Below are positions 1,251-58,203 of a stretch of 64,000 nucleotides of DNA, in pieces. The notes below the pieces were generated by a model that was not told the origin of the DNA, made no database searches, and saw nothing but the letters and a program-made list of their open reading frames with translations. The stretch spans positions 96,944 through 160,943 of the forward strand of contig JACPRZ010000043.1 in the NCBI GenBank assembly GCA_016193485.1, written 5' to 3'. The DNA comes from Bacteroidota bacterium. Lineage in GTDB: Bacteria; Bacteroidota; Bacteroidia; JACPRZ01. The position numbers and the translations under genes were made by a program. How positions within the stretch are numbered: the stretch's first letter is position 1; the number at the start of each line of letters is the position of its first letter.

Positions 1251-1342
1251 ATATACTGATGCTGAATGATTTTGTGCTGACGCTTGGATACGGCATTCTG
1301 ACATTTATCGTCAGAACAAATCATTCAGGTCAGTATAGTATG
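1251..1342. repeat. nested palindromic element: outer hairpin ctgaatgatt/aatcattcag with an inner insert carrying gacatttatcgtc
   Basis: Inverted repeat ctgaatgatt (1262-1271) and aatcattcag (1319-1328); inner palindrome ctgacatttatcgtcag (1298-1314). A simple version of the outer hairpin recurs at 9341-9389. Confidence 0.6.
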
Positions 1343-1382: not shown

Positions 1383-4300
1383 TTATTTCTTCATCAACTC
1401 CTTCGCTTCGTTTACCGGTATCCTCTTTCCTTTATGGAAAGCGATGACAAACGCTTCTTTGAATCCTTTGCTTTTCATCTGGTTCTGCAGGGCGATAACA
1501 GCATCGTAATTGGTTTCACTTCCTACCGTGTATTTGTAAATCCCGCCATCCTCGTAATAACCTACACCCGTAACACCGTTGAAGTTTTCCGGGGTAAGGG
1601 ATTTAAGTTTGGTTGAGGTGGATATTTGTACTTTTAAAATTACTCCTTCGGAATATGGTATTTTTCCAGTATCGCTTTCCTCGCCAACTAATTTCACATC
1701 GCCTGCCTGCACTATGAGCATTTCCACACGCCTGTTCTTCTGCCTGCCGGCAGGAGTAGTGTTATCGGCAACAGGATATTTCTCACCGAAATATTTGAGA
1801 ACAATGCGGTCACCTGAAATTCCTTTGCTTACCAGGTACCGCTTTATCGCTTCTACCCGTTTCATTGAAAGAATAAGGTTGTATCCGTCAGGGCCGATAT
1901 TATCGGTATGGCCGCCAAGTTTTAATTTCCAGGCGGGTTTTGCAGACAGCATGGTCGCAAGGTCATTCAGGGCGCTGTACGATTCAGGGCGTATTACATC
2001 AAGCGCAATATCAAACTCCAGGTTATTGAATGCAGTGTTGAGAATATTTTTTTCATCGCTTTTCAGCACCGCTTTCACATCAGTTGCTTCAAGTAAACTC
2101 AGGTTCACGAGGTCTTCGGAAGGCAGTTTTTCATAGTGGAAATAACCGTCTTCTCCTTTAATGATTTTCCGCATCGCCTCACCCTTTGCAATTATTTTCA
2201 GTTCCCTCAGTTTTGCCGTGTCACCACCGGCAAGAAGGAAGAGAACATTTTCTTCCGGGGGAAGTTTTTCAAAAACAAAAAATCCGTCTTCATTCCGGGT
2301 ACCTATCATCAGGGTATCGCCTTCAGGGCTGATTACATAAAGTTTGACTTCCGATTCCGGCAATTTTTCAAAACGGTAATAGTTATCCGGTCCTCTCTTC
2401 GCTTTCTGGATTGATCCACCGGCAACTATGGTGATATCAGGATCATCCATCCCGGAAAGGGCAAAAAAGTAATTCGGGTGGTCGGGTAAATGTTCAAATA
2501 CGAACATGCTGTCTTCTGTCATCTCGGCAACTTCAAGAGTATCGCCTTTGGCATCTATCATATAGAGTTTTACCTTGCTTTCGGGCAGTTGCCTGTAATG
2601 GTAAAATCCGTCATCTTTCAGCACGAGCGGCACTATATTTCCTTCGCTAAGTGCGTAGATTTCATCAACTAATTTTGTGTCATCATATTTTTGAAGGTCA
2701 AAGCGGTCTTTCGGGTCCATGGGTAGTTTTTCAAATACAAAATAACCGTCCTGGCTTTGCACTACGGTGCGTACGGTGTCGCCTTTGGCTCCGATGAAAT
2801 GCAGTTTCATCGGACAACCTTTGTTGTTACGCGGGCCTGGTTCATCGGGGCACCGGTCATCTTTATCCACAATTTTATCATTGTCACGGTCGGGACATCC
2901 TCTGAGGGCGATCATTCCGGGTACGGACGGGCAATCGTCAAACTTATCAATCACTTTATCGCCATCGCTGTCGGGGCAGCCGGCAAATTCTTTGGGACCT
3001 TTTGTACTGGGGCACTCATCATCTTTATCGCGTATGCCGTCTTTATCGCGGTCGCGGTCACCGCGGCCGAAAGTGAGATTCAAACCGAACCGTACATGGG
3101 CGTTTTTTGATTTTTCCGGGAAGAAAGCACCGTAAAAATTATCAGTTACAATGTAAAACTGGAAAAATGCCAGGTTTAATGAAAGTCCGGCACCGAGGTT
3201 AAAATAACTCCTGTTAAAAATTGAATAAGAGAGCGTGCCTCCAAACCACCGGCCGAACCGGGTAAATGAAGTAACACTGAAACCCGGATAAAAATGACGT
3301 TTGAATTTTTCACCATAGAGGGAAATGGCCACATTATTTTTTTCGTTGATTTTGTAAATGCCTGTGAGGTAAATCTGCGGTGAGAGCCAGTTGGTGTATG
3401 GCTTATATGTTTTCCTGATTTTAAAGGTTCCTTCAAGCGAATCGGCAATAGGTTGAAAAACGTCAATAGTATCCGACTGCAGAGACCGGATAAAAGCGGT
3501 AACATCAACTCCTTCATATTTGAATGTTGCGCTGTCGTTGGCAAAATTGCGCACATAGTCCTTCCACCGGATAAAACCAAGGTCAATGATGGAAGCCGAA
3601 AAATCCCATTTTTCATCGAGTGTATACGTACCTCCGAGGTCAAACCCGAACCCGCGGTTTTTCATACCAAGTAAATATTTTTTTGCATCAATGGTTTCAT
3701 CGGTATCATTCATGGGACCCGAAGTATTTATCAGCCAGTCGGCATTAAAGGTGATGTCGTAGGTTCCCGTATCGGTCTGAAGAGAAAGGTCGCTTTTGGC
3801 TGTCCAGATATTGGTCATACCGTAGAGATATTTGAAACGGCCTCCGATGTTGAATTTTTCCTGGAACCTGTGCACCCAACTGAGTCCATATTCCCGGTAA
3901 TGGATGGCATCAAAACCGATATCTTTGAAGGAAGCCAGCCCGCTGGCATCATCAATAAAAGCGCCATTACCTTTCCACAGGAGTTTTACAAAATCGCGGG
4001 GGTATGTCAACCGGAGAAACACTTTTTCAGTGACATTAAGAGCGAAATAATTATTTTCTTTTACCCTGAATCCAACGGAAAGTAAATCAACCTGTGTCCC
4101 GAATGAAAGATGGTTTCTTTTGGCAAGTTTTTTAACTACATTATCCATATCAATATAGAGCGAATCGTCTCCACGGATTTTTAAAGCATCTGCAATCCGG
4201 AATCCGCTGTGACTGAATGAACCGTAAACCGAAGAAATAACAGGCAGCCCAATGTTTACCTTTGCAAACGGAAAATATGCCGGGTTGGTGTACGTGTACT

Positions 4301-4490: not shown

Positions 4491-4676
4491 TTTGTTACTA
4501 TTCACTCCAAATTACAAATTATTATTGGTCATTGCAATTTAACTCTGTGTAACTCAGTGTACTCTGTGCTCTCTGTGTTGAAGAATTTTTCCGCCTGAGG
4601 CGGATCTGTCCTTTGGCGGATAACACAGAGTTCACTGAGATAACAGAGTTTCACAGAGGGGATGAATAGTAACGAG
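4491..4676. repeat. CACAGAG-hairpin element copy 1 with terminal inverted repeat ttgttactattcac / gtgaatagtaac
   Basis: About 130 bp identical in reverse complement to 10221-10349; contains ctctgtg/cacagag inverted repeats and a ccgcctgaggcgg hairpin; embedded mini-ORF 4471-4545 ends in PNYKLLLVIAI. Confidence 0.7.
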
Positions 4677-4696
4677 TATTTTATTAATATCGGAAG

Positions 4697-9340: not shown

Positions 9341-9389
9341 ATACTAACGCTGAATGATTATGCACAATCATTCAGGTCAGCATATAGTG
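9341..9389. repeat. palindromic hairpin ctgaatgatt-atgcac-aatcattcag (simple form of the 1251-1342 element)
   Basis: Shares the outer inverted repeat and the gtcag(c/t)atatagt tail with the element at 1251-1342; lies downstream of recO. Confidence 0.6.
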
Positions 9390-10140: not shown

Positions 10141-10220
10141 GGAAAAAATAGGGCTTTAATTAGTTCCCGTGTAAAATTGATATTTCTGATTGATGGTAAA
10201 ATTTACGTAAATATAAATTT

Positions 10221-10349
10221 TTTGTTACTATTCACCCCCTCTGTGAAACTCTGTTATCTCAGTGAACTCTGTGTTAAAAATTCTTCAACACAGAGAGCAC
10301 AGAGTACACTGAGTTACACAGAGTTAAATTGCAATGACCAATAATAATT
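10221..10349. repeat. CACAGAG-hairpin element copy 2 (inverted relative to copy 1); supplies the last 11 codons and stop of the 10324-12684 gene
   Basis: Reverse complement of 10266-10349 is identical to 4507-4590; ends with gtgaatagtaacaa. Confidence 0.7.
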
Positions 10350-14584: not shown

Positions 14585-14690
14585 ACCAGAACTCTGCGCA
14601 ACTCTTTGTTTCCTCTGTGAACTCTGTGTTTAAAAATTTCTAACACAGAGAACACAGAGTTTTTTTCACAGAGAACCACAGAGAAAAAAA
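14585..14690. repeat. CACAGAG-hairpin element copy 3 (short form)
   Basis: ctctgtgaactctgtgtt-loop-aacacagagaacacagag plus cacagagaaccacagag; lies between the thioesterase stop and the lipoprotein start. Confidence 0.6.
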
Positions 14691-24010: not shown

Positions 24011-24166
24011 CCTGCCTGCCGGCAGGCAAGGGCTACATTCCCATTGATCAGGTGTGAATTTTTTTGTTTTCCTGATCTGATGAAGTCCGATACTAGTCCT
24101 GACGTTTACGATCAGGATGCAGACATTTATCGTCTGCATCAGATTCATCGGACCGGCAGGCAGGGA
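24011..24166. repeat. complex palindromic region (cctgcctgccggcaggcaagg; nested insert with gatgcagacatttatcgtctgcatc; tail tcatcggaccggcaggcaggga)
   Basis: Shares gtccgatact(a/c)gtc and tcatcggaccgg(c/t)aggcaggga with 37746-37806, and the gacatttatcgtc core with 1298-1314. Confidence 0.6.
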
Positions 24167-24224: not shown

Positions 24225-26465
24225 TTAACCGATAATTTTCTGCACCAGATTGTCTATGTTTTTCAATTCAGATGCAAGATTGTTTTTAATGGCAACCCGC
24301 AATAGACCTAAGTAAATTGCAGTTAGTTCTTTTTGCGGTGGGTTGTTCTTTAAATATTTTGCCGTTTTGTCGTGTGCCTCTTTGCTAAGTTTTGCCAAAC
24401 GCAAATGTGTTTCATTTTCTTTGTCAAACTTTGGGTAATACATGTCAAGAATTTTTTTATGAACATCTCTTGCACCGAATAAACCTTTTGTCTGGAAATC
24501 TTTCATTAAAAGGTTTGGGGAAGTTGCATTGAGAATAGCAGTCAGATAATATGCTTCGTTTGAACTGTTGGTAACAAATGAATATCCTTTGCTTTCAACA
24601 ATAAATTCCAAATCAAAGTCCTTTCTTTTTACTACAGTTGCGTTTGCATTTTTTGCAGAAGAATTGTAGATCACTAAATAAGGCGCGTTAATATGTTGTT
24701 CAGTTAATCCTCTTTGAAAATCAAGACGGTCATTGCTTGACATGTTTTTTGATTTTGCAGTTTTTTGCAAATCCCAAATTCTTTCAGCATTTTTAAACCA
24801 TTTTGAAGCATGTAAATATCCTTCGCTTCTTAATTCATCTGCCAAGTAGATTTTGATTTCCTTTTTATTTTCATTTTGATTATATTCAACGGTAATAGGA
24901 AGAACAACTAAATCGGGTTTGAATAACGCAAAAGGTAAAATACTTTTTGATAGTGCGGTGCGGAAAAGAAAACGGCTTTCAATTTGACCAGTGAAATCAA
25001 GTCCCTTCCAAGGTTTTTTTGCGACTGCCTGAATGGAATCAGAAGTTTTTATGTTAATAATTCTACCTTCCCAATCAGGCGGATATTCTTGTGTGAGTTG
25101 AATAAAATAAAATGTGCGCGGGACAATAGTAGCGCCTTGTTTGAATAATTTTTTATATGGATTTATGTTGGTTTGTTTCTTTGATTTACGCGGTGAAAAT
25201 GCTGATGACTTTCCCTGTTTTACATAAAACCAATTTTCACTTTTTTCAACAAGATTCGGCATTGCTGATTTAAGATTGCAATTGTGTGAAGGTACATTTC
25301 CACTGAAGCTTATTCCACCGATACCGGTAGCAGGCAATGATTTTTTCCCGTTTGTTTTTTCAGCAAATAAGACACCGCTCGGAATACGGAATAAAGGGGC
25401 GACTTTATTTAAATCCCAAATATTTGTAAGGCGAAATCCTTTTGCTTTTCCGCTTCTCGTATTATCGTGATGGTCTGCGCTGAAAAAACTACGCGGTAAA
25501 ACAAAAGCAATTTTCCCGCTATCATTTAAAAAATAATTGGCACAATGGGATAAAAATATTGCGGCAATTTCAAGGTGCGGGAAGTTTGCTTTTTTGTCGG
25601 GTTTTACAAGATAGATTTCAGCAAGTTTATTTAGTATGTTCTGATATTCTTCGTTCCTGATTGAACTGTATGTGAACCAGGGAGGATTGCCTATGATGTA
25701 ATCAAATTTTCCATGCAAAAAATAGGGTTTGTAAATATTTTGCAAAATGAATTTCCAAATGCTGTCTCTGCCTTTTTCTTTTACAGATTTCAAGCCAAGA
25801 TATATTTTGTAAAATCCATTTGTAATATTGCCATTAAATCCGTTCTTCGGGAATTTTTTACATAAAATATTTTCAAAAGTTTTTTCATCTTCGGCTTTGG
25901 TATGCAATGTTTGATCTGCCAATTCTTCGCACAATTCCAAACCCTCATCAAATAATTCAATTTCTTCCAACACTTGTGTATTGAGTAAAAATACTTCTTT
26001 GTCAATTTTTAATTTGAATTCGCTGCCGAATAAACTTCCAACTCCATCGGGGGCTAATAGCGTGTTTGCAAGGATAATATTTATGTGAATAGGTTTTTTA
26101 GATTTTACAATTTCTTTTCCCAATGAAAGAAGCATTGTTGTTTTTGCAATCTGTACGGAAAGGGGATGAATGTCTATTCCGAAAATATGTTCATTGAGTT
26201 GTTCGGCAGAAGTCCCCGGATGATTTTTTTTTATCCGGTGAATGGCAGCGCGGAGAAACGAACCGCTTCCGCAAGCAGGGTCAAGGATTTTGTCAGTGGG
26301 TTTAAAATTGAATTCTTTTACAATTCTTTCGCATAACCAGTCGGGCGTATAATACTCGCCTAATGCGTGGCGCGTGTCCAAATCAATTAATTCCTGGTAA
26401 CCAGAAGAAAAAATCGTTGTCAACAAAATTGCGGATGTTGTATTTATGAAAAACAGTGCCGTCAA
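24225..26465 (-). CDS. N6-adenine DNA methyltransferase domain plus putative target-recognition region of a Type IIG (MmeI-like) restriction-modification enzyme; C-terminal part of a split gene
   Basis: SAM-binding motif ILDPACGSGSFL and catalytic motif YIIGNPPWFTYS (gamma-class N6-adenine MTase); about 450 aa C-terminal extension; overlaps the upstream ORF by 83 bp in another frame. Confidence 0.75.
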   Translation of the reverse strand: MTALFFINTTSAILLTTIFSSGYQELIDLDTRHALGEYYTPDWLCERIVKEFNFKPTDKILDPACGSGSFLRAAIHRIKKNHPGTSAEQLNEHIFGIDIHPLSVQIAKTTMLLSLGKEIVKSKKPIHINIILANTLLAPDGVGSLFGSEFKLKIDKEVFLLNTQVLEEIELFDEGLELCEELADQTLHTKAEDEKTFENILCKKFPKNGFNGNITNGFYKIYLGLKSVKEKGRDSIWKFILQNIYKPYFLHGKFDYIIGNPPWFTYSSIRNEEYQNILNKLAEIYLVKPDKKANFPHLEIAAIFLSHCANYFLNDSGKIAFVLPRSFFSADHHDNTRSGKAKGFRLTNIWDLNKVAPLFRIPSGVLFAEKTNGKKSLPATGIGGISFSGNVPSHNCNLKSAMPNLVEKSENWFYVKQGKSSAFSPRKSKKQTNINPYKKLFKQGATIVPRTFYFIQLTQEYPPDWEGRIINIKTSDSIQAVAKKPWKGLDFTGQIESRFLFRTALSKSILPFALFKPDLVVLPITVEYNQNENKKEIKIYLADELRSEGYLHASKWFKNAERIWDLQKTAKSKNMSSNDRLDFQRGLTEQHINAPYLVIYNSSAKNANATVVKRKDFDLEFIVESKGYSFVTNSSNEAYYLTAILNATSPNLLMKDFQTKGLFGARDVHKKILDMYYPKFDKENETHLRLAKLSKEAHDKTAKYLKNNPPQKELTAIYLGLLRVAIKNNLASELKNIDNLVQKIIG

Positions 26466-27288
26466 TGATTCCTTTCATTTCGTCATCGCTAATATAATCA
26501 TCATTGCTGACCACCGTATATGCCAACATTTTTGAAAAGACAGAAAGATAGGTATGAATAAGAAAATTATTTTCGCTTGCGTCATAAGAACCGTAAGCAA
26601 TGCTCAAAAACTTTTCCCATTGCGCATAAGAAACCTGAATCTCACCGTATTTTTTTACATCCCGGAAATGGTTTGACATTTCACGATAACAATCAATGAA
26701 AATACCGCTTTGATAGCCGAATGATTCTTCAATTCTCTTGAGGGTCGCTTTTTGTTTTTCTTCTTTGAAAAGAAATCTGTCAATCCAGAAATAAAAATCG
26801 TCTGCGTTATTTTCTGACAGGGTGAAAGAAGCAGAGGCGATTTCGTTCAATTTTAATTTATCTTCCGTGAGTTCTTCCAGTATATCAATTTGTGAAATGT
26901 CGGGAGCAAAAACTTTCCAATTGATAAAGTCGGAAGCAATTAGGGTGTAGTTGTAACCTTCGCCTGAATTAACCTGGCCTAAAAGATAACCCGCCAGTTG
27001 TTCTTTGGCGTGTTTCAAAGTAAATTTCAGGTCGTTTTCAAATTCAATAATGATTTTATTATAAAGGGTGTCGGCACTACCCTTGTGCATTTTGTCCTTT
27101 CGGGGAATATTCAGGACCGTTTTTTCAGCACCGCTTGTAATTTTGTCAATTATTTTTTTTATCTCTTCTTCACCGGAATATAATCGGTTGAGCAGGTCTT
27201 TGAATAATTCTTTTTTGGCGAGTTCTTTATTGGCAGTTTTTATCTTTTGCCGGTATATTTCAATCAGTTCGTTTCTGTTTTGGTCCAT
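26383..27288 (-). CDS. N-terminal (nuclease-like) domain of the Type IIG-like enzyme, separated from the methyltransferase domain by a frameshift
   Basis: 301-aa ORF ending inside the start of 24225-26465; its tail ...NDFFFWLPGIN* joins the downstream frame ...SGYQELID by a 1-nt shift near a T6 run. Confidence 0.55.
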   Translation of the reverse strand: MDQNRNELIEIYRQKIKTANKELAKKELFKDLLNRLYSGEEEIKKIIDKITSGAEKTVLNIPRKDKMHKGSADTLYNKIIIEFENDLKFTLKHAKEQLAGYLLGQVNSGEGYNYTLIASDFINWKVFAPDISQIDILEELTEDKLKLNEIASASFTLSENNADDFYFWIDRFLFKEEKQKATLKRIEESFGYQSGIFIDCYREMSNHFRDVKKYGEIQVSYAQWEKFLSIAYGSYDASENNFLIHTYLSVFSKMLAYTVVSNDDYISDDEMKGIIDGTVFHKYNIRNFVDNDFFFWLPGIN

Positions 27289-27365
27289 TGTAAATTATCT
27301 CTTTAAAACATTGTAAAAATACCATTTATTCCTGTTTGGCGGTTGCGGGCGTAACTGCCGATGAT

Positions 27366-27446
27366 CTGGAGGGAGGTGACATTGAGGGATTTGATGTAGG
27401 GGATTGAGGGGATGAGGGAATGAGGAATTAATAACATGAGGGAATT
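27366..27446. promoter_or_regulatory. purine-rich tgaggga-type short repeats upstream of the Type IIG-like gene
   Basis: ggagggagg, ttgagggat, ttgagggga, atgagggaa, tgaggaatt, atgagggaat within 80 bp; a similar ttgagggagg and G-rich tract recurs at 29680-29840. Confidence 0.35.
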
Positions 27447-27565
27447 AAAGGATCAGAAGGGAACAAGAAAAGATATTTATTGGCATAGAGTTGGTAATTT
27501 TCGTTATGGAAAAAGAAAAGGGATAGTGGAGGATTACGATACAAAGAAAGATTAGGTAAATGGCT

Positions 27566-28282
27566 TTAGTTTGTTAACGTGTGAATCAACAATCTTGCTT
27601 CCGGAATTTCTTTATAGACATTATTAATATTATCTTCGGTTAAATATGTATTAATTGTTTTGAATAACTTACCACTTCTAAATGCTTCAGGAATGGATTC
27701 AGTATCATACACCTTTTTTTTTAATTGAGGGGTTGGGTGCAAATATCTAATATTCTCTTTTGAAATATCAAATATGCAGGATGCGACAAGTATTTCTGAA
27801 CTTGGGAATAATATTAGTGGAATGAAATATGGCAATATTTCGTAATTATAACCTTGTTTAACCATTTCTTCGTAGAATTTTTCAATTGAAAAATAAATTA
27901 ATCTATTAATACTATAAGCCCATTCAGTGAAGTAATTTGAGCGGTCTTTCAGAAGTTTTTCCGTATCAGAATTGATAATTATTATTTCTTTATTTGAAAT
28001 TGCAGAATTTACCCTTAAAGTTTTTTGGTAACAAGCATAATAAATAGCAATCAAATCTTTTAATAATTTATTGGAATCATCAGAAGTAAATGAGTAATTG
28101 GATGAATTTGAAGTGTTATGCAGATATCTTGATAAAGAATTAAAAATATTCAATTGATCCAGGTCAATAAAGCAATTATCGGGTAATTCCTCCTTCCGGT
28201 GTTTTTTAAAAATGGATTGTAAAAATTTTCGGATAACATAAAAGTCACTTAGCCCGTCACGAAGTATTGCAATATTTCGCAT
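27566..28282 (-). CDS. small partner protein of the upstream ATPase; possible RloB/TOPRIM-like effector (unassigned)
   Basis: Start 3 nt after the ATPase stop; N-terminus MRNIAILRDGLSDFYV (hydrophobic strand then D-G-x-S-D) resembles the start of RloB/DUF4276-type partners; later IIIINSDTEKLL acidic patch; AT-rich. Confidence 0.5.
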   Translation of the reverse strand: MRNIAILRDGLSDFYVIRKFLQSIFKKHRKEELPDNCFIDLDQLNIFNSLSRYLHNTSNSSNYSFTSDDSNKLLKDLIAIYYACYQKTLRVNSAISNKEIIIINSDTEKLLKDRSNYFTEWAYSINRLIYFSIEKFYEEMVKQGYNYEILPYFIPLILFPSSEILVASCIFDISKENIRYLHPTPQLKKKVYDTESIPEAFRSGKLFKTINTYLTEDNINNVYKEIPEARLLIHTLTN

Positions 28283-28285
28283 AAA

Positions 28286-29581
28286 TTAAATTTCACCTAA
28301 AACACCATTATAGAAAAGTTCAACTAAATCGAATGGTTTAATAGCAATTATTTTTTTATTATTCACTGTAATTTCCTCACCCTCAACAGTACCCATATTG
28401 ACAAGGGGTTTAATTGCGTCATTTAAGTTTGTAACAAGTGTAATAAAATCTTTTTCTTTCAAATGGAAATTATAAACGGAATCGGGCCGTTGTGAGAATT
28501 CCCGAATTACGGATGGGCTGTGGCTGGTAAAAATAAACTGTGTTTTTTTTGAATTATCAGATGTATCTCTTAACCAATTAAGAAATTCATGAAGATTTTT
28601 TTGATTTATACCATTTTCTATTTCTTCAATCATAATCAATGCGGGAGGTTTGCGAATAGAGCAAAGGAGGGCAATTGCTGCAGCTCTAACTAACCCATCA
28701 GATATTTTATCAGGGTCATAGTAAGGGAAGTTTGAACCACCCATATCAAATTGCCATTTTAAACCATTTTCCTTTAAAACGAAGTTATTGAAATTTTTAA
28801 CGAACCTTTTAAGGTAACCAATAAATCGACTAAAAGTTTCTTGATCCTGCTCTTTAATAAAACAGAGTAATTCCAGAAGGTTTCCCCCTTCCTTACCGAT
28901 TGCGCTTGGTGGATATGGAAAGACATTATTTGTTTTAAAATTACCTAAAAAATCTTTTTTATAACTCGGTACTAGTTTACCTCTAATATAGGAGCCGGAA
29001 AATGCATCTCCTTTTAAAAAGGACGGTTGAAAATTATAATAATAAAAAGTTGCAAGATCGTGGAAAAATAAATTAACTATTTCTTTTTCCCGGAAATGGT
29101 TATTAGATTCATATATTTTTTTTCTTAAAAGTAATTTGGAAGAATTTATATCAAAGCCATTTTCAAATGTTATGTTATTATCAGGAAATAAAAGGGTTAA
29201 TTTCTCGGTGCTTAAAATTAAGCGATCATCTTTTATATTAGGAAAAATTGAGAGGTTATATTCTATATTGTAATTATCTTTACTCCATATGCATCGAAAA
29301 CTAATTGGTTCACCAATTTTGCACATTGAATGTTTATTTGAATTGTATTCGTATGAACGAAGGTCAGAGAAATAATATTCATCTTGACTTTCATGATCAG
29401 TTTCATGAATTGGTTCTTTAACAGGATTATATCGACTTATCAATCTAGAAAAAAAATGCAGACCCCTAAGGAAATTACTTTTACCAGAGTTATTAGAGCC
29501 GATAATTAAAGACAAATCAATGGGTTCAATGGCAGTACATTTATGGGTTCTGTAATTTTTTAGTTCTAATAATTTAAACAT
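28286..29581 (-). CDS. ABC-type (AAA_15/AAA_21, OLD/SMC-like) ATPase, defence-associated family
   Basis: Walker A LIIGSNNSGKSN near N-terminus; D-loop/Walker B ALIMIEEIENGI; H-loop FIFTSHSP; 431 aa; AT-rich. Confidence 0.75.
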   Translation of the reverse strand: MFKLLELKNYRTHKCTAIEPIDLSLIIGSNNSGKSNFLRGLHFFSRLISRYNPVKEPIHETDHESQDEYYFSDLRSYEYNSNKHSMCKIGEPISFRCIWSKDNYNIEYNLSIFPNIKDDRLILSTEKLTLLFPDNNITFENGFDINSSKLLLRKKIYESNNHFREKEIVNLFFHDLATFYYYNFQPSFLKGDAFSGSYIRGKLVPSYKKDFLGNFKTNNVFPYPPSAIGKEGGNLLELLCFIKEQDQETFSRFIGYLKRFVKNFNNFVLKENGLKWQFDMGGSNFPYYDPDKISDGLVRAAAIALLCSIRKPPALIMIEEIENGINQKNLHEFLNWLRDTSDNSKKTQFIFTSHSPSVIREFSQRPDSVYNFHLKEKDFITLVTNLNDAIKPLVNMGTVEGEEITVNNKKIIAIKPFDLVELFYNGVLGEI

Positions 29582-29861
29582 AAGAATAATATTGAGCAGT
29601 TGTTAATTTGGCGGATTTGCAAGTTTTTTTTCGAACCATTAGCGAGCAACAAAGGTAGAAATTCTTCGGGAATGATAAGGTAGTCTTCGGGATTGGGAAT
29701 GTGAAATATTTTTGATGTTGATGTTTAGTCCTGGTCGGGACCGTTGAGGGAGGCAGCCCACCCTGCCCCTTCAAAGGGGGGGGAAGTCGCGAAGGGATGG
29801 AGATAGGCGGGTGAGGTTTGTCGGGTGGAAACACACGATTGCACAAGGGAAGCATTATTCT

Positions 29862-34497: not shown

Positions 34498-34571
34498 AAA
34501 TCCAAAAATCGCTGTATCCCTCATGTAGTTAGTACTCAGCAGGGGGGATAAAAAAATGAAAATTCATGCCA

Positions 34572-34589
34572 CCCCGATAGCAATCGGGG
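34572..34589. repeat. palindrome ccccgatagcaatcgggg between convergent aroA and the ABC ATPase gene
   Basis: Member of the cccgat-N-atcggg hairpin family (also 46299-46314, 57961-57976). Confidence 0.5.
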
Positions 34590-34709
34590 TCACAAAAGCA
34601 CTGAAAAACACAAAAAATTTAGTGGAATTTTGTGTTTTCGTGTTTTTGTGGCAGGAAATTACGGGGGCCTTGAGTAGTAACCTCATGCATCTTTGTCCTC
34701 TTATTATCT

Positions 34710-37745: not shown

Positions 37746-37806
37746 GCACCTGCCTGCTCTGACGGAGTCCGATACTCGTCAGAGTCATCGGACCGGTAGG
37801 CAGGGA
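37746..37806. repeat. palindromic element (ctctgacg...cgtcagag; tcatcggaccggtaggcaggga), simple form of the 24071-24166 element
   Basis: Shares gtccgatact and tcatcggaccggNaggcaggga with 24080-24166 but lacks the inner gacatttatcgtc insert. Confidence 0.6.
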
Positions 37807-41341: not shown

Positions 41342-42151
41342 ATGAGCAAACCGGTTTTTAATATCAAAATCACATCGCCTGATGCAATGACAGCGGAAGT
41401 GCCTGCGCTTTTTGACTCAGGCGCATATTATACATTAATAAGGGAAGATAAATTGCCTTCAAAAAATTTTTTAATTTACAAAGTGCCGGAAATATTGGAC
41501 ACCGCAACAAAAGGAGGCGCACTCAAAGTAATTGGTTCATTAGAAATAATTATTGAACACCTGGATAAAAAAATAAAGACGCTCGCATTAGTGTCGCCCG
41601 ATATGACAAGGGAAATGATAGTGGGTGCCATAACCATGCAGGAATGGGATATTGTAATAAAAAATAAAAACGGAAGCGCCAAAGTAAATATCGGCAGGGA
41701 TATGCGCGACCCGGAAATTACGGAAGTTTGTTATGTCAGGGAGATTATTACCCCTGAAAATCTGCTTCATGAAGCCGTTTCCCTGCAGTTATTCCTGACA
41801 TATTGTGCCGAATGCGAAGATGATATTGATTACAAGATAAAACTGATTTCATTTATTGAACGCGCCAAACAAATTCATGCACTGCTGAAAGAACAATACA
41901 AAATAAAAAAAGAAAAACAGCCGGCAATTGAAGAAATTCGCGCTTTTTATGATAAGAATTGGCCCGGCTATATGAGACGCGGCTATAATTCCCTTTCGCA
42001 TGCTTTCGGTATTTTCGGCTGGTTGGGCGGAGATATGGAAGGCGGACCTCCCGTTGAAAAATATACTTTATCAATAATGGAAATGCTCAGGCACGACATA
42101 TTATCTCTCTTGCATGAATGGCAAAATAAAAAACGTCATCTGAAAAAATAG
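41342..42151 (+). CDS. retropepsin-like (clan AA) aspartic protease domain protein with unknown C-terminal domain
   Basis: N-terminal VPALFDSGAYYTLI (hydrophobic-hydrophobic-D-S-G-A active-site loop) and IVGAITMQEWDIVI closing strand; about 150-aa extra C-terminal domain. Confidence 0.6.
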   Translation: MSKPVFNIKITSPDAMTAEVPALFDSGAYYTLIREDKLPSKNFLIYKVPEILDTATKGGALKVIGSLEIIIEHLDKKIKTLALVSPDMTREMIVGAITMQEWDIVIKNKNGSAKVNIGRDMRDPEITEVCYVREIITPENLLHEAVSLQLFLTYCAECEDDIDYKIKLISFIERAKQIHALLKEQYKIKKEKQPAIEEIRAFYDKNWPGYMRRGYNSLSHAFGIFGWLGGDMEGGPPVEKYTLSIMEMLRHDILSLLHEWQNKKRHLKK

Positions 42152-42185
42152 TTATTGTAGAATTTTAAACAACATCAGTTTAAAA

Positions 42186-42791
42186 ATGAGGACGCAAAAC
42201 ATAAGGATAGACCCGAACTGGGTAAATAAAAATAAAGACATAGTAGAGAAATATGCCGGCAAATGGATAGCCATTAACCCGGAAAAAGGAATTATCGGAT
42301 TTAGCGATTCCATAAAAAAATTATCAGAACAATGCGATGCATTAAACATTCCGTATATTTTTTATCATGTTCCTTTATATTCTGGTGTTTTAAGATTTAT
42401 CCCCATTTATTTTAAAAGTGCGGTTACCAATAACTGGCGCCCTGTTTATCCTGCTCAACTCCGCAATAATAAAAATATAATAAAAGGATTTTTCTTAATA
42501 GACAGTGGCGCTGATTCCTCATTGATCAGCAAAGAAGCCGGAAAGCAACTCGGTTTTATCAAACAAACAGACGATGCCGTTTTAACTGCCTTTGGAATTG
42601 GGGGAACAGTTGAATACATATTGAAAATGGTTGATTGCACCATTGACGGACATACGCTCAAAATACCGGTTGCATGGATACAAACCGATGATATAGATGA
42701 TATGATAATAGGCAGAGATGTTGTTTTTGATTATTTTGATATTGAATTTAAACAAAAGACAAAAAAAATAGTTTTTAAACCTGTAAAATAA
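42186..42791 (+). CDS. two-domain protein: small N-terminal domain plus C-terminal retropepsin-like aspartic protease
   Basis: C-terminal FFLIDSGADSSLIS (D-S-G-A) and IIGRDVVFDYFDIEF; N-terminal 90 aa (KYAGKWIAINPEKGIIGFSDSIKKL) resembles small antitoxin-like DUF5678-type domains (uncertain). Confidence 0.6.
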   Translation: MRTQNIRIDPNWVNKNKDIVEKYAGKWIAINPEKGIIGFSDSIKKLSEQCDALNIPYIFYHVPLYSGVLRFIPIYFKSAVTNNWRPVYPAQLRNNKNIIKGFFLIDSGADSSLISKEAGKQLGFIKQTDDAVLTAFGIGGTVEYILKMVDCTIDGHTLKIPVAWIQTDDIDDMIIGRDVVFDYFDIEFKQKTKKIVFKPVK

Positions 42792-45744: not shown

Positions 45745-46298
45745 TGACGCCACGTGAACACTCATAATCACTTACCTCGCATAACAGGAAAAGAAAAGGA
45801 AAAACAAACATCCCATGGGCAAAATAAAACAACATATAGAAATAGGCGAAAAAAAGTACCGGGCGCTATTTGACCCCGAATCCGCAAGTATACAATGAAG
45901 CACATCATTTATTTGAGTGAATCGTTTCAAAGTGAACATGCGGATACGGGGTTTGATACCGGTGCGCGCAATAATTAAGCACGCCAAACCAACTCCGGTT
46001 TCAGGAAATATCTGCTGAATTGAATAAGTTTATACCATTGCGTATAATACCAAATGGTATAAAACATGAAAGATTCCCCATTTATTTATGGTTCTACAGT
46101 AAGCGGACATTCATTTGCCTAAAGGCAAACTTGAAATGGACAAACTAAAAATTTGTAACTGCCTCCCGTGCAAAGTTTGCAGATTCCTCCAGGATGGTCT
46201 CCTCTTCATTTAATACGTAACGGACTTTGATTTGTCCACAGCGGCCATGCTGGCAAGTATACGGATCAGCCCATTATCCGGCAAATTGCTTTTGGCAT

Positions 46299-46314
46299 CC
46301 CGATATCTATCGGG
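46299..46314. repeat. palindrome cccgatatctatcggg
   Basis: Identical core to 57961-57976; related to 34572-34589; preceded by ggcat as in the element at 1291-1314. Confidence 0.55.
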
Positions 46315-46615
46315 GTCAAACACCATCAGTATTGAAAACATCACTGCCGGTATTATTCTGTCTTTTACCATGTAAAAAGTGTCCTGCAATCCGCAAAAAG
46401 CATATAAATGAAACATTTGGCAATAATAACCGTATAACCAGAGGTTGGTGCTTATTTCGTCAGCACTAAATTTAAAAGGGTTGTCATTTTAATAAATATT
46501 GTTATATTTGCCACGATGATAATTCTGGATTTTTTTAATAGCACACTGAAATAATCACGAACCTTGATTTTAAAGAAAAAGATTTTTATTCCGGTCGCAC
46601 ACAATTAAGATCTTT

Positions 46616-47323: not shown

Positions 47324-50300
47324 ATGAGGCGATATTTACTTTTTTGTTTATCTGTTCTCAGCACATTTTTGCCCCGTTTTGTATTGGCGCAGGCGGATAA
47401 TTGCAATACCCCCGCCACTACATTAACAGTTTATCCTGCTGTTTGCACTCCTTATTCCGGTTCTACTACTGGCGCAACACCTTCTTCGGGCCCTGCCTCT
47501 ACTTGCGGAAGCACTGATGACGATGTTTGGTTCAGGTACACTACTGCAGCCGGAAGCAGTTACGCATTTTTATATGTTGATCCTGCAAGTTCCGGTTTTG
47601 ATCCTGCTTTCCAGGCATTATCAGGCGCTTGTGGCTCTCAGGCAGTTCAGGCATGTGTTGACGCCTATGCCGGAGGCCAGGGTGAATCAGTAACATTAAC
47701 CGGATTAAGCGGAAGCACTACTTATTATATCCGTGTTTTCAGTTATGGTTCCGGCAGCGGAACAGACGGCTCTTTTACCGCGTGTGTTTTCAATGGAGCG
47801 CCTCCTGCCAATGATGTTTGCGGAGTTGCTACATCAGTTACTCTTACACAAAACGCTACTTGCTCGCCTACAGCCGGAACAACTGCCTGGGCGACTACTT
47901 CTGCAGGCATTCCCGCATGTGTGGGTACTGCCGATGATGATGTTTGGTATAAATTTACCACAGGTGCAGGAGTTACTTATGAAAGAATTGTGGTAGACCC
48001 AACCGGAAGTGGCGGAGCCGATTTAGAGTTTGACCCTGTAGTTCAGGTATTTTCCGGAACATGTGGCGCCTTTGTCAGCATTGCCTGCCAGAATGCAGTT
48101 GGTGCCGGTGGGACTGAAGATTTTTTTGTTAGCGGATTAACAGGCAGTACCACTTATTATGTCAGAGTTTATCACTATGGCTCATGGTATGCGAATAGAA
48201 CCGATGGAGGAAGTTTTGATATTTGTGTGATGGGCGGTTCTCCTCCTGCCAATGATAATTGTGCAGGCGCTCTGGCTCTTCCAACTAATCCCGGTTGTGT
48301 TGTTTTTGGAGGTTCTTCTACCACAACTTTTGCAACACAATCCTCTACGGGTACTCCTTGTTCCGGCTATAGCATTGATGACGATGTATGGTACAGTTTT
48401 GTGGCTATTAATTATACCCATACTCTTACGGTTGACCCAAATTCTGCAATGAATGTGCAGATTCAGGTGTTATCTGGCGCCTGCGGTTCTATTCTCTCTG
48501 AACAATGCCAGGATAATGCAGGGATAGATGGTACCGAAACAATGGTAGTGACCGGATTGACCATCGGCAATACTTATTATGTGAGAATAAGCCATAATGG
48601 AACTTTTTATGGCAGCAATGGTTCTTTTACTATTTGCAATGTGGCGAGCGCTCCCGTTGGAGGTGACGACCTTTGCAATGCAGTTGCATTACCGGCAGTA
48701 ACCTCTGCCTGCACTTATGGAACTTATGATAATTCTTCTATGCCCACCGGCTCAGGCGCGCTACCTGCAGGATGCAGCGAAAGGGCTAATGGATTCAGGA
48801 GACACATGTGGTTTAAGTTTGTTGTTCCAACCGGTGGAAAAGTCAGCATAAATGTAAAAGGTCTTACCGGGAATATTACAAACCCCACTGTGGCCGCTTT
48901 CTCATGGAATGGAGGGGCCTGTGGCACCCTTACTAATTTTACATTACTTTCCTGCAATAATGATTTTTGCAATGTTAATGGGGATTGTAATTACCATTCC
49001 GTACTGAATTTATCCGGATTATCGGTAGGGGCGACCACCTATTTCAAAGTATCTTCCGCTTCAACAGATAATGGAGCCGGAACATTTAAAATATGTGTTT
49101 CAGCGCCACTCAATGACGGTTGTCCTGCACCTCTTTTTGTTTGTGATTTAAATGGTTTTGAAGGCACCACCAGCGCAGGTTATACAATTGATAATGGAGG
49201 TCTTGAAGGATGGAGCGGAGGACCCTATGGTACGGGAGGAACAACCATTGAAAATAATTCATGGCTGCAATTTGAGGCATCTGATGTGAATGCATCCATT
49301 ACAATTACGGTATCTGATTGTTATTTGGATGATGGTGGTGCCGGGGAATATCAATATAATTGTTGTGGCGGTCCAGCCGGTTTTAACGGTGGAGGGCTTC
49401 AGGCGCAAATACTTGCCATGAATGGCGGAAATTGTTCGGGTTCTGCGGGATGGACTGCTATGTCTGTATTTCTAAATGGCATCAATGGTCCTAATTTCGG
49501 ATTAAACGGAACTTATACTGTTACCAACACCTCTGCTCTGACTGTTGGTCAGATTTACTATATTATGTTTGACGGCTTTGCAGGCGATGTTTGTAATTAC
49601 AAAATCAATGCGGCTACAGGTGTCGGCACTACTGTTATTGTAACCCCCCCGAGCAGCACCACTAATATCTGCAGCGGCAGTACGGCTACATTGGCAATTA
49701 ATCCGGTTGGTTCGGGAGGTACGGTAAACTGGAGTTCCTCTCCTTCCGGGTATGTATGCAATAATTGCGGTTCATCAGTGGTTGTTGACCCTGCTGCTTC
49801 TCCTGGCGTTACGGATGGTACAGTAACTTATTATGCTACGGTATCCGGCAATTGCATCACACCGCAAACAGTATCGGCAACTGTGAATGTAGAGCCAACT
49901 CCACCCACTCCAACGGTTGTTGCCGATCCACCCGGTTTTTGCGGGGTTACCAGCGTTTCCATGACCGCCTCTGCTGCCAACGCTACCGATTACGAATGGT
50001 TTGATGCCCTTGTCGGAGGCAATTCATTAGATGTTGGTCCGGTCTTCACTCCGGCAATAACAGATAATCAAATCGGTTCCTATACCGTTTATGTTGCTGC
50101 ATATAACACATCAGGTTCTCCCACTTGTACCACAGTAACGCGAGCCACGAAAACAGTAACCATTAATGCCTGGGATGGAAAAATAAAGTGGACAGGAAAT
50201 GCCCCTGCTGCTACTCCCAACTGGACAAATACTCTTAATTGGGCAGGTTGCACTCCGGGTTGCGCTGATGCCGTTGGTGTAATTATTCCTGACCAAACCA

Positions 50301-51808
50301 CGGTTCCCGGTCCGAATGACTGGCCTGTTATCAGCAGCAGCGTGACCACCGACAGTTTAAAATTAGAACCAAACGGAAAACTGGAATTCATTGGAGGCGC
50401 ATTGAGCATCTGCGGTTCATTCGGACACTTTGGAATAATAACTATTTCAGGTGGTGTGCCGACAATCACTTTTAACGGTACGACAAAACAATTTTATATA
50501 AAAACATCTACCGGCACGGGTGATTTACCTAATGTTGTTATCAACAATGCAGCGGGAGTCAGAGTAGTGGATGGTGCAGGTAATAAGGATATGGATATTG
50601 GAACCGCATACATTTTAACTTTAACAAATGGGATTTTAACTTCCACAAACACCCGGACGGTAAATGTTAAAAACAGCGCTGTTGGCGCAGTTACCGGATT
50701 CGGAACATCTTCTTATGTTGCAGGTCGCCTACAAAGGGCTATTACGGGAGGATTTCCAAAATCTTATGATTTTCCTGTTGGGACTTCCAGCGGTTACGAG
50801 TTGATGAATATTAATTTTACGGCAGGCACCACCATTACAAGCGCAACCGTCTATTTTGAGAAACCATCAAACGCACTGGGCACGGGACTAAGTGCCCTAT
50901 CCGAAGGCGGTGCATCTTTTATTACTACCGTTCCCGGTATTGTCGATGCAGGGGGTGGCACAAACGGAGGATTATGGACGGTATTGGCAAGCGGAGGAGT
51001 TGCCAATTATGATATGACTTTGTATGGCAGAATATATTCTAATGCAGGCGGATTTACCCACACCATTGTAAAAAGGGACCCGTTTTGCCCAGGCAACTGG
51101 ACCCTGTCGGGAACTTATGGCGGCAGTTCGGTTGGCGGAGGAATCATTACCGTAACACGAACCGGAATGAACGGCTTTTCGCAGTTTGGCATTGGCAGGC
51201 ACGATGCGGTATTTCCTATATCCCTGTTATTCTTTAATGCCGTATGCACGAGCAGGGGAATTGAATTATCATGGATAACCGCCAGTGAAATCAATAACGA
51301 TTATTTTACAATTGAAAGAGCAGCCCCCTCCCAACTTCCCCCATCAGGGGAGGGGATGAATTGGACTGTTATCGGAACAGTTAAGGGAGCAGGCAATAGT
51401 TCTACGATTCGCAAATATGAATTTACCGATCCCCTCCCCGATAGGGAGGGTAATGGAGGGGCTTTCTATTATCGCCTTAAACAAACCGACTTTGACGGTA
51501 CCCATGAGTACTTTGATGCCGTACCTGCCGATTGCAATTCGGAAAATGAATTCAAGGTCATTAACATAATACCTAACCCGGCCAAAGACAATATTTACAT
51601 CCTCTTTAGTTCAGGGAAGAAACTCACCGATGTGACAATTGTATTATTTGACGTGCTGGGTAATTATGTGATTAAAGAAAAATTTTTACCTATTGAGGGC
51701 TTTAACAGCAGGGAGGTTGACTTAAGTTTCCTGAATAACGGGGTGTACGTAGTGAATGTAAATAACGGAACAACCAATTTTATTCAGAGAATAGTGAGAC
51801 AGGATTAA
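47324..51808 (+). CDS. giant secreted repeat protein (adhesin-like) with T9SS type A C-terminal sorting domain
   Basis: Signal peptide; about four N-terminal repeats with PPAND(N/V)C...DDDVW(Y/F)...TYY(I/V)RV; C-terminus KVINIIPNPAKDNIYILF...GVYVVNVNNGTTNFIQRIV is a T9SS tail. Confidence 0.8.
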   Translation: MRRYLLFCLSVLSTFLPRFVLAQADNCNTPATTLTVYPAVCTPYSGSTTGATPSSGPASTCGSTDDDVWFRYTTAAGSSYAFLYVDPASSGFDPAFQALSGACGSQAVQACVDAYAGGQGESVTLTGLSGSTTYYIRVFSYGSGSGTDGSFTACVFNGAPPANDVCGVATSVTLTQNATCSPTAGTTAWATTSAGIPACVGTADDDVWYKFTTGAGVTYERIVVDPTGSGGADLEFDPVVQVFSGTCGAFVSIACQNAVGAGGTEDFFVSGLTGSTTYYVRVYHYGSWYANRTDGGSFDICVMGGSPPANDNCAGALALPTNPGCVVFGGSSTTTFATQSSTGTPCSGYSIDDDVWYSFVAINYTHTLTVDPNSAMNVQIQVLSGACGSILSEQCQDNAGIDGTETMVVTGLTIGNTYYVRISHNGTFYGSNGSFTICNVASAPVGGDDLCNAVALPAVTSACTYGTYDNSSMPTGSGALPAGCSERANGFRRHMWFKFVVPTGGKVSINVKGLTGNITNPTVAAFSWNGGACGTLTNFTLLSCNNDFCNVNGDCNYHSVLNLSGLSVGATTYFKVSSASTDNGAGTFKICVSAPLNDGCPAPLFVCDLNGFEGTTSAGYTIDNGGLEGWSGGPYGTGGTTIENNSWLQFEASDVNASITITVSDCYLDDGGAGEYQYNCCGGPAGFNGGGLQAQILAMNGGNCSGSAGWTAMSVFLNGINGPNFGLNGTYTVTNTSALTVGQIYYIMFDGFAGDVCNYKINAATGVGTTVIVTPPSSTTNICSGSTATLAINPVGSGGTVNWSSSPSGYVCNNCGSSVVVDPAASPGVTDGTVTYYATVSGNCITPQTVSATVNVEPTPPTPTVVADPPGFCGVTSVSMTASAANATDYEWFDALVGGNSLDVGPVFTPAITDNQIGSYTVYVAAYNTSGSPTCTTVTRATKTVTINAWDGKIKWTGNAPAATPNWTNTLNWAGCTPGCADAVGVIIPDQTTVPGPNDWPVISSSVTTDSLKLEPNGKLEFIGGALSICGSFGHFGIITISGGVPTITFNGTTKQFYIKTSTGTGDLPNVVINNAAGVRVVDGAGNKDMDIGTAYILTLTNGILTSTNTRTVNVKNSAVGAVTGFGTSSYVAGRLQRAITGGFPKSYDFPVGTSSGYELMNINFTAGTTITSATVYFEKPSNALGTGLSALSEGGASFITTVPGIVDAGGGTNGGLWTVLASGGVANYDMTLYGRIYSNAGGFTHTIVKRDPFCPGNWTLSGTYGGSSVGGGIITVTRTGMNGFSQFGIGRHDAVFPISLLFFNAVCTSRGIELSWITASEINNDYFTIERAAPSQLPPSGEGMNWTVIGTVKGAGNSSTIRKYEFTDPLPDREGNGGAFYYRLKQTDFDGTHEYFDAVPADCNSENEFKVINIIPNPAKDNIYILFSSGKKLTDVTIVLFDVLGNYVIKEKFLPIEGFNSREVDLSFLNNGVYVVNVNNGTTNFIQRIVRQD
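51321..51465 (+). repeat. two GC-rich palindromic mini-insertions lying in-frame inside the adhesin gene
   Basis: ccccctcccaacttcccccatcaggggagggg (51321-51354) and cccctccccgatagggagggtaatggagggg (51429-51465) encode extra residues (APSQLPPSGEGM; PDREGNGGAF) absent from the paralogous module in 39696-41339. Confidence 0.5.
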
Positions 51809-52604
51809 ATGAAACGGATACCATACATAACTATCATTTTACTAACCGCAGCAGGGTTGTGCAGCAATTTCATCATGGCACAAACTTACCTAATTTCTCC
51901 GACTGGCGATGGGGGATTTGAAACCGGAACCACTTTTGCAGCCAACGGATGGACTGCTGTAAATGGTGGTTCAGATAATTGGCAGGTTGGTGGTGCGGCA
52001 GGCGTTCAGGGTGGGGCACGTGCATCTAAATTCCACAACATATACTGCTTCAGGTGCGGCTACTGTGGTGCATTATTACCGTGATATAGCCATTCCTGCA
52101 GGTGCAAATTATGTATATCTTAATTATTACCTGAAATATCCCACCATAGATAACACTTATGATTATTTCTATGTTTATAGAACTACTACAGGCAATACAC
52201 CTGTAGCCGGTACTGTCCCTGGAGCCGGATACACAAACTTGTTTACTAATACAGCCACAACCTATGCTGGTTATACAGCAATGCCACAAGTTGACCTCAC
52301 CGCACTGGCAGGCACAACAGTTCGTTTGGTTTTTACTTTTAAAAATGACGGAGCATCACCATATGCCGACCCTGCTGTTGATAATATCTCACTGACTTAT
52401 TGTAATCCTACTACTTCACTTTCCCCTACGGGTGATGGGGGATTTGAAACCGGAACCACTTTTGCAGCCAACGGATGGACTGCTGTAAATGGTGGTTCAG
52501 ATAATTGGCAGCGCTCCCACCGACCCTGCAAACGGAACTTCCTACACTGCCAATGCCGCTTATGGTTCAGGAACAGCCGTAGGAGGAGGATTTTGCGTGT
52601 ATAA
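51809..52604 (+). pseudogene. 5' part of a giant GEVED-domain adhesin gene disrupted by frameshifts (signal peptide plus MAM/choice-of-anchor-J-like domain)
   Basis: Three overlapping ORFs in different frames; peptide SPTGDGGFETGTTFAANGWTAVNGGSDNWQ encoded twice by a direct repeat (51908-51985 and 52434-52511). Confidence 0.5.
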
Positions 52605-57945: not shown

Positions 57946-57960
57946 AAACTTGCCACTGAT

Positions 57961-57976
57961 CCCGATATCTATCGGG
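57961..57976. repeat. palindrome cccgatatctatcggg just after the ACP gene
   Basis: Identical to 46299-46314. Confidence 0.55.
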
Positions 57977-58203
57977 ACAGATTAAAAACAAAATAGATAT
58001 ATGTCTGAATTGTTATTCAAAGTGGAAACTCACAAAATAATGCGAACCCTAAATTATCTTGCTGCTTCCAAACTAAAAGTCGGATTAATCGTAAATTTCG
58101 GGAAAGATTTTTTAGAATGGAAAAGATTAGTATTATAAAAAATAATCCGTGCAATCAGTGGCTGCATTTTTTTTCTACTGAGTAGGCACAAAAAAAATCC
58201 TGA

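Follow-up and report, generated by a model that had tools for sequence, protein, structure and literature searches.

The 64-kb stretch of DNA analysed here, called the window throughout, comes from a MAG whose RecO is 44% identical to its nearest relative. Besides the genes named below, it encodes an LpxC/FabZ fusion, PorZ, PorP and T9SS-sorting domains, which mark it as a Bacteroidota chromosome. A 92-nt direct repeat (51894-51985 and 52420-52511, 96% identity) and several repeats of 219-247 nt (52507-54867) lie within or adjoin very large T9SS-cargo-like genes (47324-51808 and 52489-56619), and these are probably repeated protein domains. Two adjacent ORFs at 41342-42791 carry retroviral-type aspartyl protease domains (RVP and Asp_protease_2), one of them with DUF5678, which is unusual in a bacterial chromosome.

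Four intergenic sites in the window, at 1251-1342, 9341-9389, 24071-24166 and 37746-37806, are palindromic, and all four are as an earlier sequence-only reading had described them. They represent two host palindromes, each present once with an insert and once without. The filled copy of host palindrome 1 (1252-1339) has arms at about 1252-1274 and 1317-1339, reading TATACTGA..CTGAATGATT and AATCATTCAG..TCAGTATA, and its neighbours are the stop of an OmpA/DUF5723 gene (1383) on one side and a minus-strand small ORF with an MT-A70 methylase gene on the other. A 51-codon ORF (1079-1234) overlaps the start of the methylase gene, where a frameshift is possible. The insert-free copy (9341-9389) is placed between the recO stop and the start of an asparaginase gene and contains a hairpin at 9350-9375 with the 6-nt loop ATGCAC. 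In a search of the window, the arms CTGAATGATT and AATCATTCAG are found only at 1262-1271/1319-1328 and 9350-9359/9366-9375.

Host palindrome 2 is unrelated to the first. Its filled copy (24071-24166, GTCCGAT...ATCGGACCGGCAGGCAGGGA) is located downstream of an Eco57I/MmeI-like methyltransferase gene and possibly has a more distant outer arm, as 24011-24020 (CCTGCCTGCC) is complementary to 24155-24164 when read directly. The insert-free copy (37746-37806) is flanked by the divergently oriented genes lpxC/fabZ, which starts at 37720 on the minus strand, and holA, at 37881 on the plus strand, and occupies the spacer that separates them. The 22-mer TCATCGGACCGGNAGGCAGGGA, from the 3' half of this host, occurs in the window only at 24145-24166 and 37785-37806 and in none of 100 shuffles. 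In each of the four regions, folding is far stronger than in shuffled sequence, with z scores from -3.4 to -6.1, the latter for 1252-1339. Three additional intergenic hairpins of the form (A/C)(T/C)CCCGAT-NNNN-ATCGGG(G/A), with 8-bp stems and 4-nt loops, are located at 34570-34592, 46295-46318 and 57957-57979. The GTCCGAT...ATCGGAC stem of host 2 looks related to these hairpins, whose geometry is that of CGTC-1-type REPs, and CCCGAT-N4-ATCGGG hairpins are also present in foreign loci (30 pattern matches, both strands counted).

Small inserts in the loops of larger palindromes

Alignment of each filled palindrome with its insert-free counterpart reveals a single block, of 41 nt in host 1 (1251-1342 against 9341-9389) and of 42 nt in host 2 (24071-24166 against 37746-37806). 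Both alignments were made with a cheap gap extension, which was used instead of pairwise MAFFT alignments of filled and empty hosts, where the gap was scattered. A clean block with a junction ambiguity of no more than 2 nt separates the paralogous hosts; at the junction of the filled copy of host 2, a shared TC leaves an ambiguity of 1-2 nt. In the T...A frame of the inserts, and with this ambiguity of 1-2 nt, the best-supported limits are 1275-1316 and 24097-24138. The insert proposed earlier is thus present, but its size is 42 nt rather than about 40 bp, and it is not one palindrome but two tandem 21-nt hairpins.

Copy 1 (1275-1316, plus strand) begins with hairpin 1 (H1, 1275-1295), which reads T GCT GAC GCTTGGA TAC GGC A and is degenerate, with 5 of 7 pairs formed, and ends with hairpin 2 (H2, 1296-1316), which reads T TCT GAC ATTTATC GTC AGA A. 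The corresponding hairpins of copy 2 (24097-24138, plus strand) are T CCT GAC GTTTACG ATC AGG A (H1, 24097-24117) and T GCA GAC ATTTATC GTC TGC A (H2, 24118-24138). Read directly, the two units align without gaps and match at 27 of 39 positions. The 13-mer said to be common to both inserts, GACATTTATCGTC, has just two exact matches in the window, 1300-1312 and 24122-24134, and each is on the plus strand. The stems that flank this core do differ while remaining complementary, as had been observed, with two compensatory changes in the ATTTATC-loop stems (ttctgac/gtcagaa versus (a)tgcagac/gtctgca(t)).

It could be argued that no insertion took place, that the long and short forms of each palindrome arose independently, their loops differing in length through local slippage or template switching, and that the shared 13-mer is due to chance. 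This explanation is consistent with the presence of only two unit copies in the 64-kb window and with the lack of enrichment of the 13-mer, for which 3 occurrences with up to two mismatches were found and 1.9 are expected. However, when a covariance model was trained on 24 units from other organisms, excluding all window sequence, it matched the window in two places only and in each case over the whole 42-nt unit: 24094-24143, with 48.4 bits and E 2.7e-17, and 1272-1321, with 34.2 bits and E 1.5e-11. Moreover, the inserts align gapless over 39 nt, and the 42-nt unit is found in more than 100 foreign contigs. Variation of the loops alone is considered extremely improbable.

A third nested case involves a different insert, of 31 nt (4590-4620, plus strand), which is unrelated to the 42-nt unit but likewise comprises two T...A-clamped hairpins (T CCGCC TGA GGCGG A + T CTGTCC TTT GGCGG A). 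It sits in the apical loop of host palindrome 3, a long CTCTGTG.../...CACAGAG palindrome at 4497-4685, which recurs without the insert and in the opposite orientation at 10201-10345. Aligned to each other, 4503-4685 and 10201-10345 (reverse-complemented) are identical at 149 of 150 positions, which indicates a recent duplication, and the insert stands out as a single 31-nt block with a junction ambiguity of 1 nt. The first hairpin of this insert, TCCGCCTGAGGCGGA, is identical in a Cytophagales genome (L010/L241), where it is again located within another hairpin, 20 nt from a unit of the 42-nt type. All three host palindromes are lineage-specific, and searches of 243 foreign loci for them returned 0 occurrences. 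A shorter relative of the CTCTGTG family is present at 14604-14680. The CTCTGTG/CACAGAG motif resembles REPs listed for the Cytophaga hutchinsonii RAYT of subclass 2.6 (GTGGTCTGTGGCACACAGAAC; PMC6006769 supplement) as well as repeats in a Chitinophagaceae spacer (L244).

A family of double hairpins in Bacteroidota

Species-representative genomes were scanned for CNGACATTTATCGTC, which has 14 specified bases, and the matches were mostly chance occurrences in the coding DNA of many phyla. Among the matches listed, the core is accompanied by covarying palindromic flanks in at least about 30 places, all in Bacteroidota, while the core matches listed from other phyla are non-palindromic and chance-like. 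The genomes that carry the palindromic form belong to the Cytophagales, Chitinophagales, Flavobacteriales, Bacteroidales, Sphingobacteriales and Saprospiraceae, and the upstream hairpin of the window copies recurs at several foreign copies of the core. A two-hairpin pattern with 19 specified bases, run on metagenome contigs, matched at least 120 of them, and 85 distinct palindromic units are included among the matches listed. Together, genome and metagenome contigs hold more than 100 copies of the unit, and every copy that can be assigned to a taxon is from Bacteroidota, where several classes are represented. The worry that only the two occurrences in the window might exist is dispelled by the far larger number in other genomes. 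The related worry, that the core might occur without palindromic context, does not apply to the Bacteroidota core matches listed, which have palindromic flanks.

The unit is 41-42 nt long and has the form T-NNN-GAC-[GCTnnnG]-GTC-NNN-A followed by T-NNN-GAC-[ATTTATC]-GTC-NNN-A. T...A clamps close both of its hairpins; the GCTnnnG loop is 6-7 nt long and the ATTTATC loop 7 nt, the invariance of the latter being imposed by the search pattern. Across 24 diverse foreign units, 92% of stem cells are paired, compared to 21-45% when the partners are slid. Covariation is also pronounced, with 54 double-change cells compared to 16.7 +/- 3.3 after shuffling, and 0 of 500 shuffles reach the observed value. 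At the level of sequence, the structure of the unit is demonstrably under selection, and the units make up a discrete family. The wobble pairs, when counted by strand, give a mixed outcome, with an excess of T.G in hairpin 2 and of A.C in hairpin 1.

The units are largely intergenic. Like both copies in the window, 31 of the 33 Bacteroidota genome instances overlap no ORF of at least 100 aa; the remaining two are covered by short ORFs that are probably spurious. Among the matches listed from metagenomes, 68 of 85 units are outside ORFs of at least 100 aa. Extra unit copies occur in foreign loci at about 1 per 80 kb. Rfam gave 0 matches in the window at the gathering threshold, and relaxing the cutoff to E <= 10 added none at the four sites; at the motif in 18 foreign loci there was no match either. 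Searching the literature with the core and with hairpin 1 turned up unrelated primers only, and the 42-nt double hairpin appears to be previously undescribed.

Several other readings of the sites were tried and rejected. A riboswitch or leader RNA was dismissed, as the downstream genes are unrelated (methylase, asparaginase, unknown protein and LpxC/FabZ) and Rfam yields no match. A hammerhead-like core, CTGATGA, is present in the filled host 2, but GAAA is absent and the insert-free host 2 (37746-37806) has CTGACGG. An association with phages was also dropped, the viral scan having produced 3 matches, 2 of them non-palindromic. In one Bacteroidales genome, the core is present in three loci within a multi-copy group II intron (L040 1030-3040, L051), which encodes a 420-aa reverse transcriptase/maturase and has D1D4-2 and domain V matches. 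Here CTGACGATAAATGTCAG, the reverse complement of the core, is located in the 5' region of the intron just before the D1D4-2 match (L040, L051). The unit was not taken for a group II intron fragment, since the core in the intron has a flank extension of only 2 bp and there is no intron near the other copies; the occurrence in the intron may be either chance or a link. Additionally, a gut species variant, TTTGACGTTTTTTGTCCTATATGGACATTTATCGTCC, matched the pattern but may not be a true unit, as its flanks are non-palindromic and a second GACATTTAT lies 60 nt upstream. This variant is carried by the human-gut contigs L126, L129, L142, L146, L158, L168, L171, L175, L181, L190 and L202.

Insertion context, nesting and turnover of sites

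The proposal that the element targets existing hairpins is borne out by this genome, whereas the family as a whole does not show such targeting. In the window, all three small inserts (1275-1316, 24097-24138 and 4590-4620) are found in the apical loops of larger palindromes. Across 79 foreign units, in contrast, the complementarity of the flanks is no higher than in mismatched-flank controls. The bases that flank the unit in 55 distinct contexts show a weak preference, with a purine before it in 71% and a pyrimidine after it in 73%, and TAG^T occurs in 4 of the 55. A fixed target, GT^, was an early impression that was lost when these contexts were counted. Relative to the unit, the flanking genes are oriented (+,+) in 10 cases, (-,-) in 16, divergently in 9 and convergently in 9, and therefore there is neither a strand bias nor a 3'-end bias. 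The genes that adjoin foreign units are unrelated housekeeping genes with metabolic and envelope functions.

The identity of the neighbouring genes bears on a further explanation, namely that the units are attachment sites or integration scars that mark the borders of acquired restriction-modification or defence islands. In the window, copy 1 abuts a MunI-like nuclease and the MT-A70 methylase (58-1131), copy 2 abuts a cluster of the Eco57I/MmeI-like methyltransferase and an AAA_21/AbiEii-like ATPase (24225-29855), and the insert-free hosts are found between core genes (recO/asparaginase and lpxC/holA). These are two cases only, however, and may be coincidence. Units in other genomes adjoin ordinary genes for metabolism and the envelope, and the window contains no integrase or recombinase. 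A role as island borders is judged very improbable. Within the second cluster, unannotated ORFs separate the methyltransferase from the ATPase.

Units occur within units, and sites turn over between close relatives. Among the matches listed, 17 metagenome contigs have one unit within the GTC arm of another, in the opposite orientation, with a junction ambiguity of 1 nt. When the inner 42 nt are taken out, 3 of the 17 regain a unit that matches the strict pattern. Turnover is seen in a Chitinophagaceae 'type A' contig (L150), in which the spacer after a DUF1501 gene holds a 42-nt unit. Relatives with 96%, 93% and 91% protein identity have different palindromic repeats in this spacer, and in one with 88% identity it is just 28 nt long. 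In L248, the orthologous DUF1501 spacer (2947-3328) is taken up by a palindromic repeat of about 98 nt, CACAGATAAAC...GTTCATCTGTG, in four tandem copies. The sequence-only reading had spoken of a small mobile palindromic element. The analysis bears this out as far as a discrete nested unit is concerned, and the block indels, self-nesting, occurrence in both orientations and turnover of sites amount to mobile-like behaviour.

Stability at a site has also been observed. The unit is kept at the same position in four contig pairs whose flanks are 71-83% identical, which weighs against pure selfishness. At positions that are not fixed by the pattern, pairwise identity is 74-96% in the units and 55-91% in the flanks, a difference that is partly due to ascertainment, since a single pattern was used to retrieve the two contigs of a pair. 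L150 and L176 share about 100 nt of homologous flanks and have identical stems, with the loops GATAAAT and CGAAAGC or GCTTCG and ATTTATC. More generally, units of 'type A' and 'type F' have loops that are swapped and reverse-complemented, and their middle arms are not inverted. The difference between the types is a flip-flop-like rearrangement, for which simple inversion does not fully account.

The conservation of the units invites the explanation that they are chiefly a functional signal, such as a binding site or a structured RNA or ssDNA motif, with GCTnnnG and ATTTATC loops that are read by a conserved Bacteroidota factor. Selection would then maintain the unit, and its spread and nesting would be secondary. 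Such a role is suggested by the invariance of the loops and of the GAC/GTC closing pairs while the stems covary across classes, by the retention of units at orthologous sites (at the identities given above) and by two units, at L095 and L115, whose hairpins, with their A and T runs, are perfect terminator-like structures in both directions. Additionally, the type A and type F repeats keep their two loops in the same 5'-to-3' order even though the host is inverted. Against this, there is no orientation bias with respect to neighbouring genes, divergent spacers being as frequent as convergent ones, and no Rfam family matches the unit. The two window copies run antisense to their flanking genes and lack a downstream U run. 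The clean block indels, the self-nesting and the loss or replacement of the unit at an orthologous site within 88-96% protein identity are also difficult to reconcile with a signal maintained by selection. A chiefly functional role is viewed as rather unlikely. Similar considerations apply to intrinsic terminators and REP-type mRNA stabilisers, which resemble the unit in being GC-clamped hairpins in spacers. However, the window copies lack the T run of intrinsic terminators on either strand, and the family lacks their sense-orientation or 3'-end bias. From its sequence and placement, the unit does not appear to be a strand-specific RNA signal.

Affinities of the unit and a possible mechanism of spread

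REP-like repeats are common. To our knowledge, their spread is understood for one class only, the GTAG REPs that are moved by RAYT, and we know of no enzyme for the CGTC-type REP families. A generic REP is a short (20-40 bp), imperfect, hairpin-forming palindrome with an extragenic location, and the 42-nt unit agrees in both its form and its location. Generic REPs also have a high copy number within one genome; for the unit, the figures are two copies in the 64-kb window and about 1 extra copy per 80 kb in foreign loci. REPs nested in larger palindromes and REP families without a dedicated transposase are documented in other phyla (Di Nocera, De Gregorio & Rocco 2013, PMC3733652). The CGTC-tagged REPs described there are, like the unit, short extragenic palindromes with CGTC/GACG motifs and no dedicated transposase; they come from several phyla, including one Bacteroidetes species (Gramella forsetii), and some of their families are found inside larger palindromes (PMC3733652).

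The stems of the CGTC-tagged REPs are 8-9 bp long and almost always start with A-T (PMC3733652). Among 27 copies of the 42-nt unit, 20 have A at position -5 and 22 have T at -4, while 10 form the outermost pair, and the stem is better described as a 7-bp, T...A-clamped one. Other features differ. The CGTC of the tagged REPs is an unpaired 5' tag (also TGTC or CCTC), their loops are 4-5 nt long, and their dimers are head-to-head with negligible tandem arrangement (PMC3733652). In the unit, by comparison, CGTC/GACG straddles the loop-stem junction, the loops are 6-7 nt and sequence-invariant, and the hairpins are a tandem pair. In the window copies, the bases at the place of the CGTC tag, just ahead of the ATTTATC hairpin's A-T, are CGGC and CAGG; the only copy with a true CGTC-AT is that of L036, which reads CGTC-AT-CCCGAC...GAT-CCC. 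Because it has neither the unpaired tag nor the 4-5-nt loop nor the head-to-head dimer, the unit was provisionally classified, on these described features, as REP-like but outside the CGTC-tagged family.

The REPIN/RAYT system shares with the unit the properties of non-autonomous hairpin repeats of tens of bases, which are intergenic and persist in lineages, and its repeats are thought to move as single-stranded hairpins (Bertels & Rainey 2011; Quentin et al. 2018, PMC6006769). The Bacteroidetes have their own RAYT subclass, 2.6, with atypical REPs (PMC6006769), and the unit bears no resemblance to any REP that the supplement of PMC6006769 lists for it. A REPIN consists of two inverted REPs that form one long hairpin with a 5' GTAG-type tag, whereas the unit has direct tandem hairpins without a tag. 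RAYT genes are single-copy and flanked by their REPs. For the unit, a crude regular-expression test of 1.7 Mb around about 240 unit loci revealed no Y1 gene, that is, no ORF with the HUH...Y signature of Y1-HUH enzymes. Known REP/RAYT sequences also normally differ between genera, while the loops of the unit are constant across classes.

The ends of IS200/IS605 elements and their miniature derivatives, known as palindrome-associated transposable elements, offer another parallel. They have a hairpin at each end and no target duplication, as does the unit, for which the junction ambiguity is 0-2 nt overall, and IS200/IS605 transposition uses single-stranded DNA. However, IS200/IS605 elements insert 3' of a fixed 4-5-nt target, whereas the unit has only the weak purine^pyrimidine preference; the unit is also shorter than known IS200/IS605 ends, and a search for a full-length parent with tnpA or tnpB found none. 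The unit differs from a classical MITE, which has terminal inverted repeats and a target-site duplication, in that its ends are the outer arms of two separate hairpins and any duplication is confined to 0-2 ambiguous bases. Small palindromic repeats within other repeats or palindromes have been described as Rickettsia palindromic elements, Neisseria dRS3/Correia mosaics and Anabaena GTAG-15 dimers (PMC3733652), but these have other sequences and belong to other phyla. A. variabilis and H. neapolitanus are reported to have no empty target palindromes (PMC3733652), whereas here filled and empty hosts are found in one 64-kb window.

Based on this evidence, it seems reasonably likely that the two inserts are copies of a mobile, REP-like, non-autonomous miniature DNA element. 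In this scenario, two unrelated, lineage-specific palindromes would have gained a copy at their single-stranded tips by insertion of DNA, or a copy would later have been precisely lost there. Mobilisation would depend on an enzyme that acts in trans and recognises the tops of the hairpins (GAC-loop-GTC), and the element itself would move as single-stranded hairpin DNA. Apical loops would be hit because they are single-stranded when palindromes extrude or when they are on the lagging-strand template. This interpretation as single-stranded DNA is drawn from the two hairpins, the lack of target duplication, the insertion into loops and the self-nesting. The known enzymes that move single-stranded hairpin DNA are the Y1/HUH transposases. 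By analogy, the mobilising enzyme might tentatively be sought among single-strand-specific HUH/Y1-type transposases (RAYT or IS200-like), although this assignment is rather doubtful; no transposase of any kind, integrase or recombinase is encoded in the 64-kb window.

Several other features go against the mobile REP-like reading. Loops that are constant across classes are a better fit to a conserved host function than to a selfish repeat, units persist at orthologous sites whose flanks are only 71-83% identical, the flank preference is weak, the genes that adjoin units are unrelated housekeeping genes, and only two copies are visible in the window. A conserved host factor is the main rival to the mobile element, but the two explanations are not exclusive, and a domesticated REP could be both. 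A broader and more speculative proposal, which is thought unlikely, is that the 42-nt units, the 31-nt CCGCC units and perhaps other T...A-clamped hairpins form an ancient Bacteroidota system, in which a conserved enzyme, different from any known RAYT or IS200 transposase, would write modules into the single-stranded loops of palindromes, and the loop sequences would have been constant since the classes diverged. If this were true, the loops would be far more conserved than in any known REP/REPIN system, and a testable mobilisation mechanism would be available for the 'orphan' CGTC-like REPs.

Overall, what is new is a 42-nt double hairpin that is conserved in several classes of Bacteroidota and has no name, Rfam model or known enzyme. 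It gives handles on the spread of REPs, as a defined element with invariant loops in at least six Bacteroidota orders, with filled and empty sites in one genome, self-nesting and turnover between close relatives. These are sufficient for a search model and for profiling of copy number against gene content, by which the enzyme or host factor could be found. On a practical level, nested palindromes of this kind break assemblies, create spurious ORFs and can pass for regulatory RNAs.
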